This document shows, piece after piece, positions 2,613-58,297 of a stretch of 64,000 nt of DNA (within the stretch, counting starts at the first letter, position 1; every line of letters starts with the position of its first letter). Position numbers and translations under genes: made by a program. Below the pieces are notes generated by a model. That model had not been told where the DNA came from. It was given only the letters and a program-made list of their open reading frames with translations, and did no database searches. The stretch is from positions 15,932 through 79,931 of the forward strand of contig DASSJM010000061.1 in the NCBI GenBank assembly GCA_035691205.1, read 5' to 3'. The DNA is from Actinomycetota bacterium (GTDB lineage Bacteria; Actinomycetota; UBA4738; HRBIN12).

Positions 2613-4145
2613 GTGTACGGGAAGGTCACCGGCGTCACCGTCGTTGGAGTGCGGGGGTATCCCGTCACCGTTGAGTCGCACGTCGGGCGGGGCCTGCCGT
2701 CCTTGACGCTCACGGGACAGCCCGGGGCGGCGATCCAGGACGCCCGCGAACGGATCCGCCCGGCGATCGAGAGCGCCAGGCTCGAGTGGCCGCTCCGCCG
2801 GGTCGTCGTGAACCTCGTCCCCGGCAACCTGCGCAAGGAGGGTCCCGGACTCGATCTCCCCGTCGCCGTGAGCGTCCTGGCGGCCACCCGGCAGGTCCCC
2901 GAGCGTCGGCTCTCCGGATGGGTGTTCGCCGGCGAGCTCTCGCTGAAGGGAGTGCTCGTCTCGACGCCGGGGGTGCTCTCGGTCGCGATCGCCGCGGAGC
3001 GCGCCGGGCTGCGCGGCGTCGTCGTCCCCGACGCCAACGCCGCCGAGGCCGGCCTCGTCGAGGGCCTCGAGGTCATCGGGGCTCCCACGCTCGCCGAGGT
3101 CGTCGCGTTCCTGCGGGGAGCGTGGCGGCCCGCACCGACGCCGGAGACCCGATCGGAGGGGGTGATCTCCCACCCCGTCGACCTGGCCGAGGTCCGCGGG
3201 CAGGCGCAGGCGCGTCGAGCGCTCGAGGTCGCGGCCGCCGGCGGGCACAACCTCCTGCTGGTCGGATCGCCGGGCGCGGGCAAGACGATGCTGGCCCGGC
3301 GGCTGCCCACCATCCTGCCCGCGATGTCCCGGGACGAGGCGCTGCAGGTCACCCAGCTGCACTCGGTGGCCGGACTCCTCGACGGGGGGCTCGTGCGCGA
3401 GCGACCGTTCCGGTCGCCGCACCACACGGTCTCGCCGGCGGCGCTGCTCGGCGGCGGGTCGACGCGTCTGCGTCCGGGCGAGATCTCGCTCGCGCACCAC
3501 GGCGTGCTGTTCCTCGACGAATTCACCGAGTTCCGCCGGGATGCGGTCGAGGGGCTGCGTCAGCCGCTCGAGGACGGCAGGGTGGTGGTCACCCGGATGA
3601 CGGGAACGGCGGAGTTCCCCGCGCGCTTCACGCTCGTGGCGGCGTCCAACCCATGCCCGTGCGGGTACCGAGGGGACGCCACCCGTCGCTGCTCGTGCCG
3701 GGACGACCGCGTATCGCTCTACTCGGGCAAGCTCTCCGGCCCGCTGCTCGATCGTGTGGACCTGCAGGTCTCGGTCCCGCGGCTCACCCGCCAGGAGCTC
3801 CTCGGCGAGGGAGCGGGAGAGGCCTCGGCGATCGTGCGCGAGCGCGTCGAGGTGGCACGGGACCGTCAGCGGCGCCGATACGCACGCATCGGCTCCCCCT
3901 GCAATGCGCAGCTCCCCGGACCGATCGTTCGGCGCGAGGCCCGGGTCTCCGGCGAGGCGCACGAGATCCTCGCCGAGGCCGTCGACCGGCACGGCCTCAC
4001 GGGTCGCGGCTTCGATCGTGCGCTGAAGGTCGCCCGGACCATCGCGGACCTGGCCGGATCGGATGACGTCGGCCCCGATCACGTCGTCGAGGCCCTGGCG
4101 TATCGTCGGACGCCACCGTCCCTCGAGCTCGAGCATGCCGGCTGA
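2613..4145 (+). CDS. comM: YifB/ComM family Mg-chelatase-like AAA+ ATPase
   Basis: 510 aa with an N-terminal Lon-like domain, a Walker A motif (GSPGAGKT), Walker B (VLFLDEF) and a C-terminal Mg-chelatase subunit ChlI-like region. Confidence 0.9.
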   Translation: MYGKVTGVTVVGVRGYPVTVESHVGRGLPSLTLTGQPGAAIQDARERIRPAIESARLEWPLRRVVVNLVPGNLRKEGPGLDLPVAVSVLAATRQVPERRLSGWVFAGELSLKGVLVSTPGVLSVAIAAERAGLRGVVVPDANAAEAGLVEGLEVIGAPTLAEVVAFLRGAWRPAPTPETRSEGVISHPVDLAEVRGQAQARRALEVAAAGGHNLLLVGSPGAGKTMLARRLPTILPAMSRDEALQVTQLHSVAGLLDGGLVRERPFRSPHHTVSPAALLGGGSTRLRPGEISLAHHGVLFLDEFTEFRRDAVEGLRQPLEDGRVVVTRMTGTAEFPARFTLVAASNPCPCGYRGDATRRCSCRDDRVSLYSGKLSGPLLDRVDLQVSVPRLTRQELLGEGAGEASAIVRERVEVARDRQRRRYARIGSPCNAQLPGPIVRREARVSGEAHEILAEAVDRHGLTGRGFDRALKVARTIADLAGSDDVGPDHVVEALAYRRTPPSLELEHAG

Positions 4146-5388: not shown

Positions 5389-6644
5389 CCGCTCGCGCAG
5401 ACGATCGTAGAGCGCACGGAGCGCGAGAAGGCGTCGGCCGAGTCGGGGACGTCTCCGACGAAGACGTGCCGGGATCCCTCGAGGTGGCCGGCGTCCCACT
5501 CCGTCTTCTGGCGCACGTCGACGACGTCCCCGGCCTCCCCGCGCCCGATCTCCGCCACGAGCTGCTCGACACCGATCGCGGGGTACGAGGCGGTCTCCCG
5601 GCCCGACGCCGCCCAGGTCGCGACCCCGCCCTCGAGGTGGCCGAGCACCGGATCCCACCCGATCCGGTGCAGCTGGGTCGAGGCCTCCACGAGCCCCTCG
5701 TGCGACTCCACCAGGAGGACGATCGGAGTGGCGAACGGGAGCAGCCACCCGACGTACGCCGCGAACGAGGGTTCGAGCGGGACGTTCAGCGAGCCCGGCA
5801 CGTGGGCGCCCGCGAAGTGGGAGCCGTTCCGCGTGTCCACGAGCCAGGCGCCGCCGGCGAGCGCCGCCGCCGCGTCGTCCACCGTCATCGCCGCCGGGAT
5901 CGGGACGGCGCCGAACACGGGCGGCCCGGCGCGGTTGATCGGCGCCATGTGCGCGTAGTAGTCCGGGTACGCCACCAGGCCGGCCAGCTGCTGCCGCACG
6001 AACGCCTCCTCGTCCAGGTCGGCCAGGGCCGGGTTCAGGTGTCGTTCGTCGCCGAGCGTGGAGGTGCGTTCGCTGCTGGGCGGCGCGCTCGCGCAGAAGC
6101 TTCCGGCGCCGTGGGTCGGCAGGAGCAGGACCTGGTCCGGGAGCGCGGAGAGCCGACGCATGGTCCGGAACTGGAGACGCGTGAGCTCGTCGGCGCGCTC
6201 GGGGCCGAGCAGGTCCGTCCGTCCGGCGCTCCCGACGATCAGGCTTCCTCCCGAGAACAGTGCGACGCCCTCGCCATCGAAGTCCCGCAACAGGTAGGAC
6301 GTGTGCTCGGGCGTGTGACCGGGCGTGGCGAGCGCCTCGAGGCTCCCGTCGCCGATCGAGATCCGCGTCCCGTCCTCAACCGGCGTCGTCGGGAAGGCGT
6401 AGCCGCCGGTCGCCGGAGCCAGGATCTCGGCGCCGGTCGCCACCCGGAGCTCCCCCGCCCCGGAGACGTAGTCGTTGTGGACGTGCGTCTCGATGACGTA
6501 TCGGATCCGCGCGTCGCGGGACCGTGCCGTCTCGACGAACCGATCGACGTCTCGCTGTGGGTCGATGACGGCGGCCTCGTCCCCCCAGGACACCACGTAG
6601 CTGTTGTCGCCGAGCCCGGGCGTGACGAACAGGTCGAGCTCCAT
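5277..6644 (-). CDS. MBL-fold metallo-hydrolase fused to two rhodanese domains (persulfide dioxygenase / sulfurtransferase-like)
   Basis: N-terminal MBL motif HVHNDYVSG...TPGHTPEH, followed by two rhodanese modules, the second with an active-site Cys loop (CASGYRS). I chose the internal ATG (MELDLF) because upstream of it the ORF is Arg/Pro-rich and looks non-coding. Confidence 0.75.
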   Translation of the reverse strand: MELDLFVTPGLGDNSYVVSWGDEAAVIDPQRDVDRFVETARSRDARIRYVIETHVHNDYVSGAGELRVATGAEILAPATGGYAFPTTPVEDGTRISIGDGSLEALATPGHTPEHTSYLLRDFDGEGVALFSGGSLIVGSAGRTDLLGPERADELTRLQFRTMRRLSALPDQVLLLPTHGAGSFCASAPPSSERTSTLGDERHLNPALADLDEEAFVRQQLAGLVAYPDYYAHMAPINRAGPPVFGAVPIPAAMTVDDAAAALAGGAWLVDTRNGSHFAGAHVPGSLNVPLEPSFAAYVGWLLPFATPIVLLVESHEGLVEASTQLHRIGWDPVLGHLEGGVATWAASGRETASYPAIGVEQLVAEIGRGEAGDVVDVRQKTEWDAGHLEGSRHVFVGDVPDSADAFSRSVRSTIVCASGYRSSMVASMLAREGVPVRVVSTAGVPRALRLLRGGA

Positions 6645-53769: not shown

Positions 53770-54222
53770 CTAGAGTCGGAGCTCCTCGAGCTCGACCGGT
53801 GCCTCGTCGTGCTCCCTGCGCAGGAGCACGCCCTCGCACTCGCGGAGCGGCTCGATCTCACGGGCGGTGAGGCCGAGGACGGCGCGTTCGATCAGCGGTG
53901 TGTGCGAGACGGCGAGGCCCCTGCCCTCCTCGGGCACGGCGTCGAGGAGCGCGGCGACGACCCCGGCCATGGCCAGGGGGGAGCCGTCGTTGTCCTTCGC
54001 CGCGAGGCCGGGGACCACGGCGTGGGCGGGCAGCTGCTCCCCGAGGCCCCGCAGCATCCACGCCACGGTCTCGGCCGCCCGCTGGGCGGGTGAGATGAAC
54101 ACGACTCCGTACCCCCCCGCGAGCGATGCCCCGACCGACTGCGCGTGTGCGCGGCCCTCCTGCGAGAGCCGATCGGCGGTCGGATCGCGTTGCGCGTGAC
54201 GACGGAGTTCCAGGGTCCTCAC
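53770..54222 (-). CDS. Histidine phosphatase family protein (SixA / phosphoglycerate mutase-like)
   Basis: 150 aa with an N-terminal LRRHAQ (RHG-type) motif and a later catalytic His. Confidence 0.7.
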   Translation of the reverse strand: MRTLELRRHAQRDPTADRLSQEGRAHAQSVGASLAGGYGVVFISPAQRAAETVAWMLRGLGEQLPAHAVVPGLAAKDNDGSPLAMAGVVAALLDAVPEEGRGLAVSHTPLIERAVLGLTAREIEPLRECEGVLLRREHDEAPVELEELRL

Positions 54223-54255
54223 CGTTGGGGTTCCTCCGGCTGCGGTTCAGGTAGC

Positions 54256-54735
54256 ATGCCGCGACCCGTGGAGACTACCCGTCGCTTCGCCGTGCTCGCC
54301 CTTGCCGGGACGTTGCTCCTCGGCGCCTGCACGGGGTCCGGCGATGGCTCCGAGACCACCGGCTCCACCGGTGGGGCGGGGATCACCGGTGTCCAGGACA
54401 CCGGCCCCACCCCCGCGCAGACGCTCACGCCGGGCGTCGGCACGTTCACCTACGAGAACGGCGGTCTCACCGTGACGGCCGACATCGAGGCATCCAGCGG
54501 AACCCTGGAGGTGGACAACCGGAGCGGGCACGACCTGGCGGCGCCCGATCTCTACGTCCTCGACGCGGTCGACGGTCATGAGGTCGCGGTGGACGTCGCC
54601 GGAAGCGAGCCGGTCGCGGCCGGTGAGACGGCGACCTTCGACGTCTCGCTCGGTGAGGTCGACGTGGACCAGGTGGGGCTGCTCGTGCTGCTGTTCGGGA
54701 AGGACAACTACGGCGCCTTCGTGCGGACCGGCTAG
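54256..54735 (+). CDS. Small secreted lipoprotein of unknown function
   Basis: Lipobox (LLLGAC) after the internal ATG at 54256. The protein is Gly/Thr-rich and shows third-position GC bias. Confidence 0.5.
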   Translation: MPRPVETTRRFAVLALAGTLLLGACTGSGDGSETTGSTGGAGITGVQDTGPTPAQTLTPGVGTFTYENGGLTVTADIEASSGTLEVDNRSGHDLAAPDLYVLDAVDGHEVAVDVAGSEPVAAGETATFDVSLGEVDVDQVGLLVLLFGKDNYGAFVRTG

Positions 54736-55283
54736 CTCTGCCTGCTTGCGGGCTCGGCCTCGCCGGCCGCGATCCTGGCCAGCACGAACAGCAGGTCCGA
54801 GAGTCGATTGAGGTAGGTCAGGACCGCGTCGTTCACCCCCGTCCCTGAGTCGCGGAGCTCGACGACGCGTCGTTCGGCGCGGCGCGTCATCCCGCGCGCG
54901 ACGTCGAGACACGCCGAGACCGGGTTCGCGCCCGGCACCACGAAGGCCTGGGGCAGGGGATGAGCGGAGACCAGGGTGTCGATCCGCGACTCGAGGCCCT
55001 CGACCATGTCGGGTGTGACGACGGATACGCCGGGTTCCAGGCGTGCGCGCTCGGCCGGATTCGCCGCGAGGTCGGCGCCCAGCACGAAGAGCTCCCGCTG
55101 GATCTGCAGGACCTCGTCGGCGAACGGCCGGTCCTCGCTCAGCGCCCGCGCGAGCCCGAGGGCGGCGACCACCTCGTCCAGGGTGCCGCAGGCCTCGGGG
55201 ACCGGGTGGGCCTTGGAGACCCGACCCCCGTACAGGAGCCCGGTAGTGCCGTCGTCGCCGGTCTTCGTGTAGATCCGCGGCAT
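54732..55283 (-). CDS. Cob(I)yrinic acid a,c-diamide adenosyltransferase, PduO type
   Basis: N-terminal signature MPRIYTKTGDDGTTGL and a PduO-type helical bundle. Confidence 0.85.
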   Translation of the reverse strand: MPRIYTKTGDDGTTGLLYGGRVSKAHPVPEACGTLDEVVAALGLARALSEDRPFADEVLQIQRELFVLGADLAANPAERARLEPGVSVVTPDMVEGLESRIDTLVSAHPLPQAFVVPGANPVSACLDVARGMTRRAERRVVELRDSGTGVNDAVLTYLNRLSDLLFVLARIAAGEAEPASRQS

Positions 55284-55389
55284 CCGGCTAGGATAGCCGG
55301 GTCACTCCTCCCATCTGGGGGGGAACGGGCCGGGAGCGCAGGAGATGCAGGAGGCACGAGCGACGCTCCTTCCGCTGGTTGAAGGCGAG

Positions 55390-55545
55390 CCCCCTCGGGC
55401 TCCTGCCCCTCTGCGGGCTCCTGCCGCCCCTGAGGTTCATGGTCCTCTTTGGGCTCCTGCCGCCCCTGAGGTTCATGGCTCTCCCTGGGCTCCTGGGGCT
55501 CTCAGGGTGCAGGTCGCTCTTGGGCTGCAGGCCCCTCATAAACGA
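55390..55545. repeat. Array of about five imperfect tandem repeats of roughly 36 nt (core GGGCTCCTGCCGCCCCTGAGGTTCATGG) in the divergent pduO/dapA intergenic region
   Basis: I found the repeats by reading the sequence. Two units are nearly identical and the flanking units are degenerate. Confidence 0.7.
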
Positions 55546-55734
55546 CATGTGCAACATGTGGCAGATGTGGCTGTTGTGCGGGAAGTGGAACGGTGCTAGG
55601 CTGCGGTCTCGAGCGTGGGGCCGGTCGACCGTGGCAAGCCAGGACGCCTGAGCGGGGCCCGGTCGCCCGGCCCGACGTCGTCCCCGGAACCGCTCGTCAC
55701 GCCGACCGCCGCACCGGAACGAGGAGGCATCGTC

Positions 55735-56619
55735 ATGGCCGGTAGGTTCGGGGCGGTCGTCACCGCCATGGTCACGCCCTTCCACGAGGATCACACCCTC
55801 GACCTGGACGCCGCCCGGTCGCTCGCCGCGTACCTGTACGAGCACGGATCCGAGTCGCTCGTCGTCGCGGGCTCGACCGGCGAGTCACCCACCCTCACCC
55901 ACAAGGAGAAGCTGGAGCTCTTCCGCGCCGTGATCGAGGTGGCGCAGGGCCGGGGGAAGGTGCTGTGCGGCACCGGCACCTACGACACGGCCGAGACCGT
56001 GGAGCTCTCACGCGAGGCCGAGGGGCTCGGCGCCGACGGGCTGCTGCTGGTGACGCCGTACTACAACAAGCCGCCGCAGGCGGGCCTGCTCGAACACTTC
56101 ACGCGGGTGGCGAACGCCGTGAGCATCCCGATCATGGCCTACAACATCCCGGGCCGCACGGGCATCCGGATCGAGCACGACACGCTCCTGCGGATGGCCG
56201 AGATCCCGAACATCGTCGCGGTGAAGGACTCGACGGGGGACTTCCAGGCGATCAGCCGGCTGATCTCCGAGGCGCCGCCGGACTTCGAGGTCTACTCGGG
56301 CGACGACTGGGCGACGTTCGGCTACCTGTGCCTGGGCGCCGTGGGGATCGTGAGCGTGGCCGGTCACCTCGTCGGTACGCGCATCGGCCAGATGTGCGAT
56401 CTCATCTTCGCCGGTGACATCCCGGCTGCCCGCAAGATCCACGAGGAGCTCACCCCGCTGTTCAACGCCCTGTTCATCACGTCGAACCCGATCCCGGTGA
56501 AGACCGCGCTCGGCCTGGTGGGTCACCCGGTCGGCCCGCCGCGCCTGCCGCTCGTGCCGGCGACGCCCGAGGAGCGCGAGCGGATCCGCAAGGCGCTGAT
56601 GGATGCCGGCCTCCTCTAG
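55735..56619 (+). CDS. dapA: 4-hydroxy-tetrahydrodipicolinate synthase
   Basis: Motif AGSTGES.TL, the Schiff-base Lys (VAVKDSTGD) and a (beta/alpha)8 barrel. An ATG at 55735 follows GAGGAGG. Confidence 0.9.
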   Translation: MAGRFGAVVTAMVTPFHEDHTLDLDAARSLAAYLYEHGSESLVVAGSTGESPTLTHKEKLELFRAVIEVAQGRGKVLCGTGTYDTAETVELSREAEGLGADGLLLVTPYYNKPPQAGLLEHFTRVANAVSIPIMAYNIPGRTGIRIEHDTLLRMAEIPNIVAVKDSTGDFQAISRLISEAPPDFEVYSGDDWATFGYLCLGAVGIVSVAGHLVGTRIGQMCDLIFAGDIPAARKIHEELTPLFNALFITSNPIPVKTALGLVGHPVGPPRLPLVPATPEERERIRKALMDAGLL

Positions 56620-58297
56620 CAAGCGGACGAAGTCCGCCCCGTCCGCCCGCGTCGTCTTCCTCGGCGGCGTCGGCGAGGTCGGGCGGAACATGGCGTGCGT
56701 GGAGCTCGACGGCCGCCTGCTCGTGGTCGACGTCGGCCTGTCCTTCCCCCACGCCGAGATGCCCGGGATCGACCTGGTGCTTCCGGACTTCGAGTACGTG
56801 CGGGACCGGTTCGATGACCTCGAGGCCGTGGTGCTCACGCACGGGCACCAGGACCACATCGGCGCGATGCCGTACCTGCTCCGCGAGCTCGCGGGGCGGG
56901 CGCTCCCGGTGTACGGGACCCCGTTCACGCTCGCGCTGCTGGAGGGTCAGCTCGAGGAGCACGGCGTGCGCGACCGCGCCGAGTTCCGTCAGGTGACCCC
57001 GGGGGAGGACGCGAGCGTCGGGCCGTTCTCGATGCGGTTCATCCGGGTGACGCATTCGATCCCCGACGGGATGGCCGTGGTCATCGACACGCCGTTCGGC
57101 TCGATCCTGCACACGGGCGACTTCAAGGTGGATCAGACGCCGCTGGACGGCCGGCCGACCGACCTGCACGGGCTGGCCGAGGAGGCCGGTCGGGGCGTCC
57201 ACCTGCTCCTGTCCGACTCGACCAACGCCGAGGAGGCGGGCTACACCGACAGCGAGCGCAGCGTGGGGCCGGTCCTGCAGGACATCATCGCCCGCGCCCC
57301 GCAGATGGTCGTGGTCGCGTGCTTCAGCAGCCACATCCACAGGATCCAGCAGGTCGTGAACGCCGCCCGCGCCGACGAGCGCGTCGTCGCCTTCCTCGGC
57401 CGCTCCATGCATCAGAGCGTCGAGGCGGCGCGCGAGCTCGGGTTGCTGCACGCGCCCGAGCAGGACGTCGTGCCCATCGAGGAGGTCGAGCGCCTCGACC
57501 CCTCGCGCGTGGTGGTCGTCTGCACGGGCTCGCAGGGAGAGCCGCTCTCCGCGCTCAGCCTGATGGCCGCGCGGGAGCACAAGTGGGTCAAGCTCGACCA
57601 GGGCGACACGGTCGTGCTCTCGAGCAGCCTGATCCCGGGCAACGAGCCGGCGATCCACCGCGTCGTCGACGGCCTGTACCGGACCGGCGCCGACGTGTTC
57701 CACCTGCCCGCGTACCCGGTCCACGCGAGCGGCCACGCAGCGGCGGAGGAGCTTCGGCTGATGCTCTCGCTCGTTCGTCCGCGCTGGTTCATCCCGATCC
57801 ATGGGGAGCGCCGGCACCTCGCCCACCACGCGAAGATCGCGACCGAGGTCGGCATCCCGTCCGATCACGTCCTGATCTGCGAGGACGGCGACGTCGTCGA
57901 GGTGGGGGAGAAGGTCCAGGTCGTGGACCGGGCGCCGGCGGGGATGACGTTCGTCGACGGCCTGGGCATCGGCGACGTCGGCCAGGTGGTGCTTCGGGAT
58001 CGCCGCAAGCTGTCCTCGGACGGCGTGGTCGTGGTGGTCGTCGCGATCGATGCCCACCACGGGCAGGTCGTCTCGGGCCCGGACATCGTGAACCGCGGCT
58101 TCGTGTTCGAGGAGACCTCTGGCGACATCCTTGAAGCGGGGCGCGAACGCGTCATGCTTTCCCTGCAGGAGAGCGCGCAGGCGGAGGTCGTGGATCGCAG
58201 CGTGCTCGAGCAGAACATCCGGCGCGTGCTCGGGAAGTACTTCTACGAGGTCACCCAGCGCAAGCCGGTGATCGTGCCCGTCATCGTGGAGGTGTAG
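56603..58297 (+). CDS. rnj: Ribonuclease J
   Basis: MBL motif (THGHQDHIG) and the beta-CASP motifs; it overlaps the end of dapA. Confidence 0.9.
   Translation: MPASSSKRTKSAPSARVVFLGGVGEVGRNMACVELDGRLLVVDVGLSFPHAEMPGIDLVLPDFEYVRDRFDDLEAVVLTHGHQDHIGAMPYLLRELAGRALPVYGTPFTLALLEGQLEEHGVRDRAEFRQVTPGEDASVGPFSMRFIRVTHSIPDGMAVVIDTPFGSILHTGDFKVDQTPLDGRPTDLHGLAEEAGRGVHLLLSDSTNAEEAGYTDSERSVGPVLQDIIARAPQMVVVACFSSHIHRIQQVVNAARADERVVAFLGRSMHQSVEAARELGLLHAPEQDVVPIEEVERLDPSRVVVVCTGSQGEPLSALSLMAAREHKWVKLDQGDTVVLSSSLIPGNEPAIHRVVDGLYRTGADVFHLPAYPVHASGHAAAEELRLMLSLVRPRWFIPIHGERRHLAHHAKIATEVGIPSDHVLICEDGDVVEVGEKVQVVDRAPAGMTFVDGLGIGDVGQVVLRDRRKLSSDGVVVVVVAIDAHHGQVVSGPDIVNRGFVFEETSGDILEAGRERVMLSLQESAQAEVVDRSVLEQNIRRVLGKYFYEVTQRKPVIVPVIVEV

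Follow-up and report, generated by a model that had tools for sequence, protein, structure and literature searches.

What is a repeat-filled, highly patterned sequence doing between two divergently transcribed housekeeping genes? The question is raised by a 451-nt intergenic region (55284–55734) between pduO and dapA, on a core-chromosome segment of an uncultured Actinomycetota. The window, by which we mean the whole 64,000-nt stretch of DNA that was analysed, has a GC (guanine plus cytosine) content of 0.71, and all positions are counted along it. An earlier reading of the sequence, here called the original prediction, had described in this divergent spacer of about 450 nt a tandem array starting near 55390, followed by an AT-richer segment with reiterated ATGTGG/CATGTG hexamers, and had judged the region too structured for a simple spacer. 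We show that the flagged region is one single structure, a lattice of unspaced, degenerate 9-bp units that fills the spacer between two predicted promoters, and that this lattice is non-coding, under purifying selection, specific to this locus and present throughout a clade of uncultured Actinomycetota. As to its function, the reading we prefer, and to which we give an even chance, is that the lattice may serve as a DNA operator array on which a regulator of dapA and of the gene that follows it, rnj, would bind cooperatively.

A single lattice of 9-bp units

Autocorrelation over 55380–55600 peaks at lags of 9, 18, 27 and 36 nt (z of 5.8, 8.5, 4.7 and 8.5, respectively) and at none of 3, 6 or 12 nt. 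The true period is therefore 9/18 nt, and the repeat unit of about 36 nt given by the original prediction, itself real, consists of four 9-mers. C is the first letter in 24 of the 28 nonamers of the lattice (Table 1), whose consensus is C-n-n-G-T-G-n-C-n, and because all 28 share a register, the 36-nt repeat and the ATGTG hexamers belong to the same lattice, a more structured arrangement than had been noted. The distance from the end of the last unit (55590) to the dapA ATG is 145 nt (about 150 nt had been stated), and the AT-richer segment is borne out by a GC content that falls to 0.53–0.57 at 55510–55599.

The reiterated hexamers resolve into five GTG triplets at an exact spacing of 9 nt (55549–55587), the sole such run in the 64 kb and one seen in 0 of 100 shuffles. 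These promoter-proximal units, block B, have the consensus CATGTGRCn, are conserved in about 100 loci and are nearly invariant across the clade. Their GTG is never exchanged for GTC; since the real genes there use both about equally (GTC 123 times, GTG 100 times), block B is constrained as nucleotides and not as codons.

To place these observations in an evolutionary context, we compared 80 loci around dapA homologues from species-representative genomes and 49 from metagenomes (cited below by labels such as L126). The nearest public DapA proteins, at 90–92% identity, are all encoded in metagenome-assembled genomes from soil or groundwater. For strain-level copy number of the repeat, no exact DapA match was found, and none of 5.8 billion proteins exceeded 91% identity. 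The divergent pduO–dapA layout is kept among relatives with a spacer of 43 to about 520 nt, and a 9-nt periodicity is present in almost every spacer longer than 150 nt. It extends well beyond the conserved units: when block B and everything downstream of it are removed first, the distal lattice alone still has, over 80 distinct loci, a mean z of 2.8 at lag 9 and 2.6 at lag 18, with values of about 0 at lags 3, 6, 8 and 10. Read in the register of block B, these distal units carry C at position 1 in 57% of cases and at position 8 in 52%, and G at position 4 in 56% and at position 6 in 46%; the C maximum falls at position 1 or 8 in 62 of the 80 loci.

The lattice also belongs to this locus. Of the strongest 9-nt-periodic stretches that a sliding scan picked out in about 900 kb of related DNA, nearly all lie upstream of dapA, and no further lattice or array resembling block B was found elsewhere in the window, in about 490 kb of the first 80 related loci or in the 900 kb as a whole. 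Three loci (L009, L022 and L025, at about 6050–6070) have another, weaker 9-nt-periodic segment some 3 kb past the dapA start; it is probably a stretch of tripeptide repeats in the N-terminal part of FtsK, unrelated to the promoter lattice.

The 36-nt array and the case for neutrality

Within the lattice, the 36-nt array is readily detected. Tandem Repeats Finder reports a 36-nt unit in 2.2 copies with 91% matches (55415–55495), together with a weaker 9-nt period over 55415–55501, and a repeat search returns five 36-nt copies in an 18-nt register (55391–55516), in agreement with the roughly five imperfect direct repeats originally described. The window contains the word GGGCTCCTG seven times, four of them within 55397–55495; the expected number is 1.2, and a count of seven is reached in 0 of 100 shuffles. 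The tandem array is thus confirmed by the repeat finder, by autocorrelation and by shuffling.

Its age is another matter. A three-way alignment with the two closest relatives, both of other species than the window's (L126, dapA 92% identical; L003, 91%), contains a single gap of 126 columns and aligns throughout the rest. The 126 nt amount to 3.5 copies of the 36-nt unit and contain two near-identical copies (55415–55450 and 55451–55486) along with degenerate flanking ones. Young duplications are found elsewhere too, with an 18-nt unit in 2.2 copies at 95% identity in L039/L085 and others in L100, L084 and L118, and upstream of dapA in the related loci Tandem Repeats Finder returns predominantly periods of 9 and 18 nt (67 and 9 arrays). 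Taken together, the 126-nt insertion and the independent 18-nt duplications indicate that the lattice lengthens and shortens by in-phase slippage, of which the window is the largest current example. By the alignment, the 36-nt array is a recent in-register duplication found only in this species, a young slippage product, and the window's own expansion is probably near-neutral or merely modulatory. The inserted 126 bp correspond to 14 × 9 bp and also to 12.0 turns of B-DNA at 10.5 bp per turn; the insertion thereby disturbs neither the register of the lattice nor the helical phasing of the two promoters, which may be coincidence.

A minisatellite, one of the alternatives in the original prediction, thus fits the 36-nt array, an in-register insertion missing from L126 and L003. 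Extended to the whole lattice, the same idea would leave only the promoter core (-35 and extended -10), and perhaps one or two adjacent units, as functional, with the rest an essentially neutral, slippage-prone spacer. The absence of the 126 nt from the closest relatives agrees with this, as do the strong divergence of unit sequences between lineages, the independent 18-nt duplications, the variable spacer length (about 90 to about 370 bp) and the outright loss of the lattice in some lineages, where the intergenic region measures 43–114 nt (L016, L040, L067 and L069). The pattern of conservation, however, argues the other way. Identity over the whole intergenic region is 0.81–0.87, whereas the four-fold degenerate sites of dapA, compared in the same pairs, reach 0.62–0.70, a sign of purifying selection; in most of the 80 loci (the 62 counted above) the distal units keep the register of block B; and a group of distal units far from any promoter core, block A, is 90–93% identical in more than 20 loci by blastn. 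Bacterial deletion bias, moreover, should remove 100–350 bp of useless DNA over this divergence. We consider neutrality of the lattice as a whole rather unlikely. Conservation in relatives, which the original prediction had itself proposed as a check, divides the region in the same way: the hexamers are conserved, and the 36-nt array is not.

Predicted promoters, leader and coding potential of the spacer

At the dapA end, 70 distinct loci share the arrangement G(T/C)KSAAC - nTGTGRCnC - nTGTGRCnC - TTGTGCG - 17 or 18 nt - TGn - TANNNT. In the last hexamer the middle three positions vary (GGC, GCA, CGC, GAT, TCG and others) and T, A and T are fixed; because of this, and of the TG upstream, we infer that it is an extended -10 element (TGcTAGGCT, 55594–55602, in the window). 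The architecture is that expected of a sigma-70-type promoter, which we call P2 and whose transcripts would start at about 55609–55610. The fourth unit of block B contains the -35 element, and the invariant units span about -64 to -20 relative to this predicted start. An E. coli-style promoter and terminator scan found nothing, a result that is uninformative for a GC-rich lineage: TAGGCT matches TATAAT at only 3 of 6 positions, so a scan with the E. coli consensus misses P2. Many relatives have a short form of this region (most of L001–L033; for example, L017 at 2915–3000), in which about 115 nt equivalent to window positions 55592–55706, comprising the -10 element, a hairpin described below and a variable leader, are lost and the ATGTG units plus CGCCGCACCGG lie directly upstream of the dapA ribosome-binding site. 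They have TATCGT in place of the -35 TTGTGC, which may be a shifted -10 element.

At the pduO end, the sequence CTAGGATAG is present in 60 of 72 loci and its inverted mirror form, CTATCCTAG, in the other 12; both give TANNNT on both strands. This symmetric element, which probably acts as a promoter, is kept where pduO has been deleted (L013, L015 and L049) and also where the spacer is only 43–100 nt and it must therefore be the dapA promoter. Because its minus-strand TATCCT lies 6 nt before the pduO ATG (55283), the pduO messenger RNA (mRNA) would be leaderless. The plus-strand arm, P1, would start transcription near 55301 and read into the repeat array. As the element is retained without pduO and at short spacers, P1 very probably transcribes the lattice, which would make the latter at once the upstream DNA of P2 and the leader RNA of P1. 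The distance between the two promoters, taken modulo 9, has only a broad peak at 2–4 and is not decisive.

Table 1. Features of the pduO–dapA–rnj region, in window coordinates.
Feature	Position	Strand	Description
pduO	54732–55283	minus	PduO-type cob(I)alamin adenosyltransferase gene
Symmetric bidirectional -10 element	55288–55296	both	CTAGGATAG; TAGGAT on plus at 55289–55294, TATCCT on minus at 55295–55290
Block A	55333–55375	plus	Conserved distal units CAGGAGATG CAGGAGGCA CGAGCGACG ...; Shine–Dalgarno-like AGGAG; ATG at 55345 opens ORF84
9-bp phased lattice	55339–55590	plus	28 consecutive nonamers in a single register, with the sequence wrapped at 9 nt
Species-specific tandem expansion	55417–55542	plus	126 nt, or 14 nonamers; gap placement inside the repeats is arbitrary
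Block B	55546–55590	plus	Five promoter-proximal units CATGTGCAA CATGTGGCA GATGTGGCT GTTGTGCGG GAAGTGGAA; the ATGTG hexamers first noted
Predicted promoter P2 (dapA-rnj)	55574–55602	plus	-35 TTGTGC at 55574–55579; 17-nt spacer; TG at 55594–55595; TAGGCT at 55597–55602
Block C, leader hairpin	55610–55680	plus	At the predicted 5' end of dapA mRNA; 70 nt, 28 bp; invariant internal loops and apex GCAAGCCAGGnCGCCUGAGCGGGGCC
C-rich motif and Shine–Dalgarno	55700–55734	plus	GACCGCCGCACCGGA, then dapA Shine–Dalgarno GAGGAGG; recurs across loci
dapA	55735–56619	plus	Followed by rnj
rnj	56603–58297		Start overlapped by dapA

This double position gives rise to an RNA-level explanation, in which the 9-nt-spaced GUG units, block A or both would act within a long dapA leader made from P1, either as a triplet platform for an oligomeric RNA-binding protein (TRAP- or HutP-like) or as a translated upstream open reading frame (ORF) or a site of Rho loading that determines how much transcription continues into dapA-rnj. 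A symmetric -10 that is conserved in both orientations and survives the loss of pduO makes it likely that the lattice is transcribed on the plus strand. Block A keeps AGGAG-N9-ATG in many loci, the short-form loci retain block B beside the dapA ribosome-binding site after losing the -10 element and the hairpin, and the window's array is skewed towards C over G and poor in A. Against such a device, the sequence 55303–55610 folds no better than when shuffled (z of +0.23 and -0.03 on the two strands); the start and frame of the upstream ORF are not conserved, no frame is specifically free of stops, and GC at third codon positions (GC3) in ORF84, the frame opened by block A, is 0.52; and block B holds a fixed spacing to -35 and -10 in 70 loci. 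We know of no RNA-binding system that uses triplets spaced by 6 nt, and a TRAP/HutP-type operator, with NAG triplets 2–4 nt apart, was rejected, the triplets here being GUG and 6 nt apart. A leader-peptide attenuator or conserved upstream ORF was likewise discarded on start, frame and GC3, valine being always encoded by GTG. We regard an RNA-level role of the lattice as unlikely.

A small protein gene in the spacer is highly improbable. The candidates are ORF84 (55345–55599, with tripeptide/hexapeptide repeats of the form x-Val-x), ORF90 (55379–55651, rich in Leu and Pro) and the antisense ORF185. ORF90 has a gene-like GC by codon position (0.57/0.54/0.88) and is accepted by a crude GC3-based gene caller, and the frame of ORF84 is open in several relatives. 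The coding-like GC of ORF90 is, however, a by-product of the 9-nt repeat; its frame is interrupted in relatives by TGA stops inside TGTGAC units, and its first, N-terminal half is the species-specific insertion. The ATG of ORF84 is ATT in L126 and ACG in L033, the frame is shifted in L009 and another in L001/L004/L005 (the loci in which the frame of block A relative to block B differs), its GC3 compares with 0.91–0.96 in neighbouring genes, and its stop is the TAG of the P2 -10 element. Across the 80 loci the lattice has no 3-nt periodicity and no frame is selectively free of stops, and the candidate ORFs in the spacer have no Pfam or NCBIfam match. One practical consequence of the coding-like GC is that gene callers may annotate a spurious 90-aa hypothetical protein at ORF90.

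The weakest candidate is a riboswitch or structured small RNA within 55390–55600, suggested by the position upstream of an amino-acid biosynthesis gene and by the highly patterned sequence, and scarcely credible given that the nearest relatives lack most of the segment, that its folding z-scores are about 0 and that the true conserved structure lies just outside, at 55610–55680. The covariance-model scan that the original prediction had suggested for the intergenic region recovered no known family: a permissive Rfam scan of 55100–55900 gave only three chance matches resembling small nucleolar RNAs (E of at least 1), and a test of Rfam families including the lysine riboswitch (RF00168) and actinobacterial leader motifs gave no match at the gathering threshold. 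The small RNA, leader or riboswitch once proposed for this segment was rejected on these scans and on the fold z-scores. At the gathering threshold the whole 64 kb has 0 Rfam matches (no transfer RNA, riboswitch or leader); Rfam is silent here although pnp, infB/rbfA-type genes, dapB and a LysE exporter gene are present.

The conserved structure downstream, the hairpin of block C, is a second object of interest beside the lattice. It was found in at least 75 loci, always upstream of dapA. Its sequence is nearly invariant, and the fold is supported by minimum-free-energy and centroid structures and by the RNAalifold consensus. Over its 28 pairs in 48 distinct sequences, 85% of cells are paired, against 26–44% with the partners slid, and compensatory change occurs at 14 pairs, against 7.7 ± 1.6 in shuffles, with 0 of 500 reaching 14. 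Searched with a covariance model, the window yields one copy (92 bits) and the short-form loci yield none. In a metagenome scan for the apex, 44 of the 45 matches with enough downstream sequence lie 85–150 nt before dapA, so a multi-gene riboswitch regulon was rejected and the hairpin is taken as a dapA-specific leader element. Neither the permissive scan of 55100–55900 nor the gathering-threshold scan of the window places it in an Rfam family, and it is thus a candidate for a new family of cis-regulatory RNA with covariation support. It may serve as a 5' stabiliser, as an RNase target (the operon encodes RNase J) or as a ligand or protein sensor. One look-alike in an unrelated context (L102, 1318–1383, minus strand; 40.6 bits, E of about 1e-5) has an identical apex and lower GC, no dapA downstream, and is followed by an apparent terminator hairpin.

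Between the hairpin and dapA, CCGCCGCACC(C)GG stands upstream of AAGGAGG in most loci, including those without the hairpin, about 10 nt before the dapA Shine–Dalgarno sequence. In some loci (for example, L048) this C-rich motif could pair instead with the G-rich 5' arm of the hairpin, to which it is complementary.

Genes nearby include dapB, an Eis-like GNAT gene, a LysE exporter gene, ftsK, ppa and cinA. A 196-aa ORF on the plus strand (54145–54735, GC3 of 0.87), convergent with pduO, overlaps an antisense ORF (54247–54912, minus) and matches neither Pfam nor NCBIfam. This 196-aa ORF is probably a genuine, conserved gene of unknown function, because relatives have at the same place a plus-strand gene ending in ...DNYGAFVR...

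A candidate operator array and its known counterparts

Iterated regulator binding sites, as first proposed, are the best reading of the ATGTG units, which are near-invariant, constrained at the nucleotide level and located at the -35 element of a conserved promoter. As we picture it, the ATGTG stretch, four or five invariant units next to the promoter that span -28 to -64 relative to the predicted start and include the -35 element, would act as a DNA operator to which a small regulator would bind with one protomer or dimer per unit, and from which binding would spread cooperatively onto the weaker distal units. Such binding would control initiation at P2 and could also block transcription arriving from P1, and replication slippage in steps of 9, 18 or 36 bp would change the length of the array with its phase unbroken. 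The proposal rests on the shared register of the units, their confinement to this locus, the purifying selection, the promoter at fixed spacing beside them, the nucleotide-level constraint, the lack of unusual RNA folding and the recent in-phase expansion; the actinobacterial precedents for unspaced 9-bp repeats add architectural analogies and one sequence-level lead.

Several observations weigh against an operator array. No binding protein for the lattice was identified, and no gene for a ribbon-helix-helix (RHH) protein, a BldC-type protein or a response regulator was found among the 26 Pfam-scanned proteins of the 64-kb window. In the DNA scanned, the array is present at this one locus only, which is unusual for a transcription-factor regulon. 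If P1 is active, the lattice is transcribed, and the conservation of block B could then reflect a function in RNA. In short-form relatives block B is intact about 25 nt before the dapA Shine–Dalgarno sequence; the deletion spares it, so that it is kept despite its changed position relative to the -10 element. Finally, the distal periodicity could stem from repeated slippage, as a form of concerted evolution, without selection on each unit.

A bolder version of the proposal, which we hold to be doubtful, is that the lattice is a dedicated platform for a nucleoprotein filament, with 20–40 phased 9-bp sites long maintained at one locus, on which a cooperative DNA binder (or an oligomeric RNA binder on the P1 leader) would polymerise from the proximal units. 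Such a filament would couple the divergent pduO promoter, block read-through and gate dapA-rnj, and in-phase slippage would provide an evolutionary tuning knob. Were this true, the lattice and the unclassified, dapA-specific 5' hairpin would together form a previously undescribed two-layer control region.

The two objects of interest at this locus are thus a clade-wide 9-bp lattice anchored on the predicted dapA-rnj promoter and, adjacent to it, an unclassified leader hairpin. Through dapA-rnj, the making of lysine and of the cell-wall precursor diaminopimelate is linked with RNase J, a major ribonuclease, and to our knowledge Actinobacteria have no described regulator dedicated to dapA-rnj. 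Should the lattice prove to be a cooperative operator, it would provide a sequence handle for finding such a regulator in uncultured soil Actinomycetota. Tandem-repeat operator arrays are an already known kind of element, of which the lattice, judged by inferred function, would be a variant: an unusually long, chromosomal counterpart of plasmid-centromere and BldC-type 9-bp arrays.

How close do the known systems come? The 36-nt array has the make-up of a bacterial minisatellite or variable-number tandem repeat (unit of at least 10 nt, head to tail, high identity), with its 2.2 head-to-tail copies at 91% identity; it is present or absent between close relatives, consistent with slippage. Unlike those elements, it sits inside a conserved periodic array that is much older, and shares its phase. 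At the pduO end, divergent transcription from overlapping -10 elements was reportedly described by Warman et al. in 2021. The CTAGGATAG element resembles such symmetric bidirectional promoters in giving TANNNT on both strands, with predicted starts about 18 bp apart and both orientations among relatives, and differs in that its plus arm is followed by a repeat lattice of 100–370 bp and a second promoter instead of directly by a gene.

Two familiar binding sites were set aside. In a CRP/GlxR site (TGTGA-N6-TCACA) the core has a TCACA partner, whereas the TGTGA cores here are direct repeats 9 bp apart that lack one. A cluster of DnaA boxes (TTGTCCACA, reverse complement TGTGGACAA, at least 8 of 9 positions) was rejected by inspection, the units matching only the TGTG(G) half; the window units TGTGGCAGA and TGTGGCTGT match at 6 and 5 of 9 positions, respectively.

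The one sequence-level lead comes from MtrA, whose mycobacterial box is a direct repeat of GTCACAgcg (PMC4285127; PMC13189361). On the minus strand, block B reads GTCACAtgaGTCACAtgt in most relatives (GTCACAtga GTCACAtgt, with an exact GTCACA core); in the window it reads GCCACAtctGCCACAtgt, with cores GCCACA/TGCACA, and the likeness to the MtrA box rests on a 6-nt core. The box has two repeats, against three to five strong units and a long degenerate lattice here, and Streptomyces MtrA sites have an 11-bp spacing; we treat the resemblance as a lead, not a test.

In Streptomyces, BldC binds with one subunit per 9-bp direct repeat, in a repeat number that varies between promoters, and forms a cooperative filament (PMC5859096; PMC11963761). 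The lattice shares with this actinobacterial protein family's sites the 9-bp direct repeats in variable number. The BldC unit is AT-rich, AATTnnnn(C); a BldC-type operator was rejected in spite of the agreement in period, as no lattice unit contains AATT and the consensus of the conserved units is CATGTGRCn. BldC moreover has many targets, against one locus here, and its footprint at smeA-ssfA has one helical turn between protected tracts.

The closest architectural counterpart is the centromere of the Leifsonia xyli plasmid pCXC100, in which ParB, an RHH protein, cooperatively binds nine unspaced 9-bp repeats, one dimer per unit, with strong sites recruiting protein to adjacent weak ones (PMC3074162). 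There, as here, unspaced 9-bp direct repeats of modest unit conservation were first noticed as a weak 9-bp periodicity, and each unit of the lattice has, like RHH subsites, a short palindromic core (CATG/ACATGT). The lattice differs in being chromosomal, between the promoters of two housekeeping genes, and in having 20–40 units instead of nine; the consensus is AGNTGGAAA on pCXC100 against CATGTGRCn here, no RHH gene was found nearby, and the likeness is one of architecture. Other RHH operators are also built of unspaced short repeats, such as the 8-bp metboxes of MetJ and the 7-bp heptads of omega. The repeat pattern that defines such operators, at least two unspaced repeats of 7–9 bp at a promoter or centromere, is present upstream of dapA in five strong and about 23 degenerate units.

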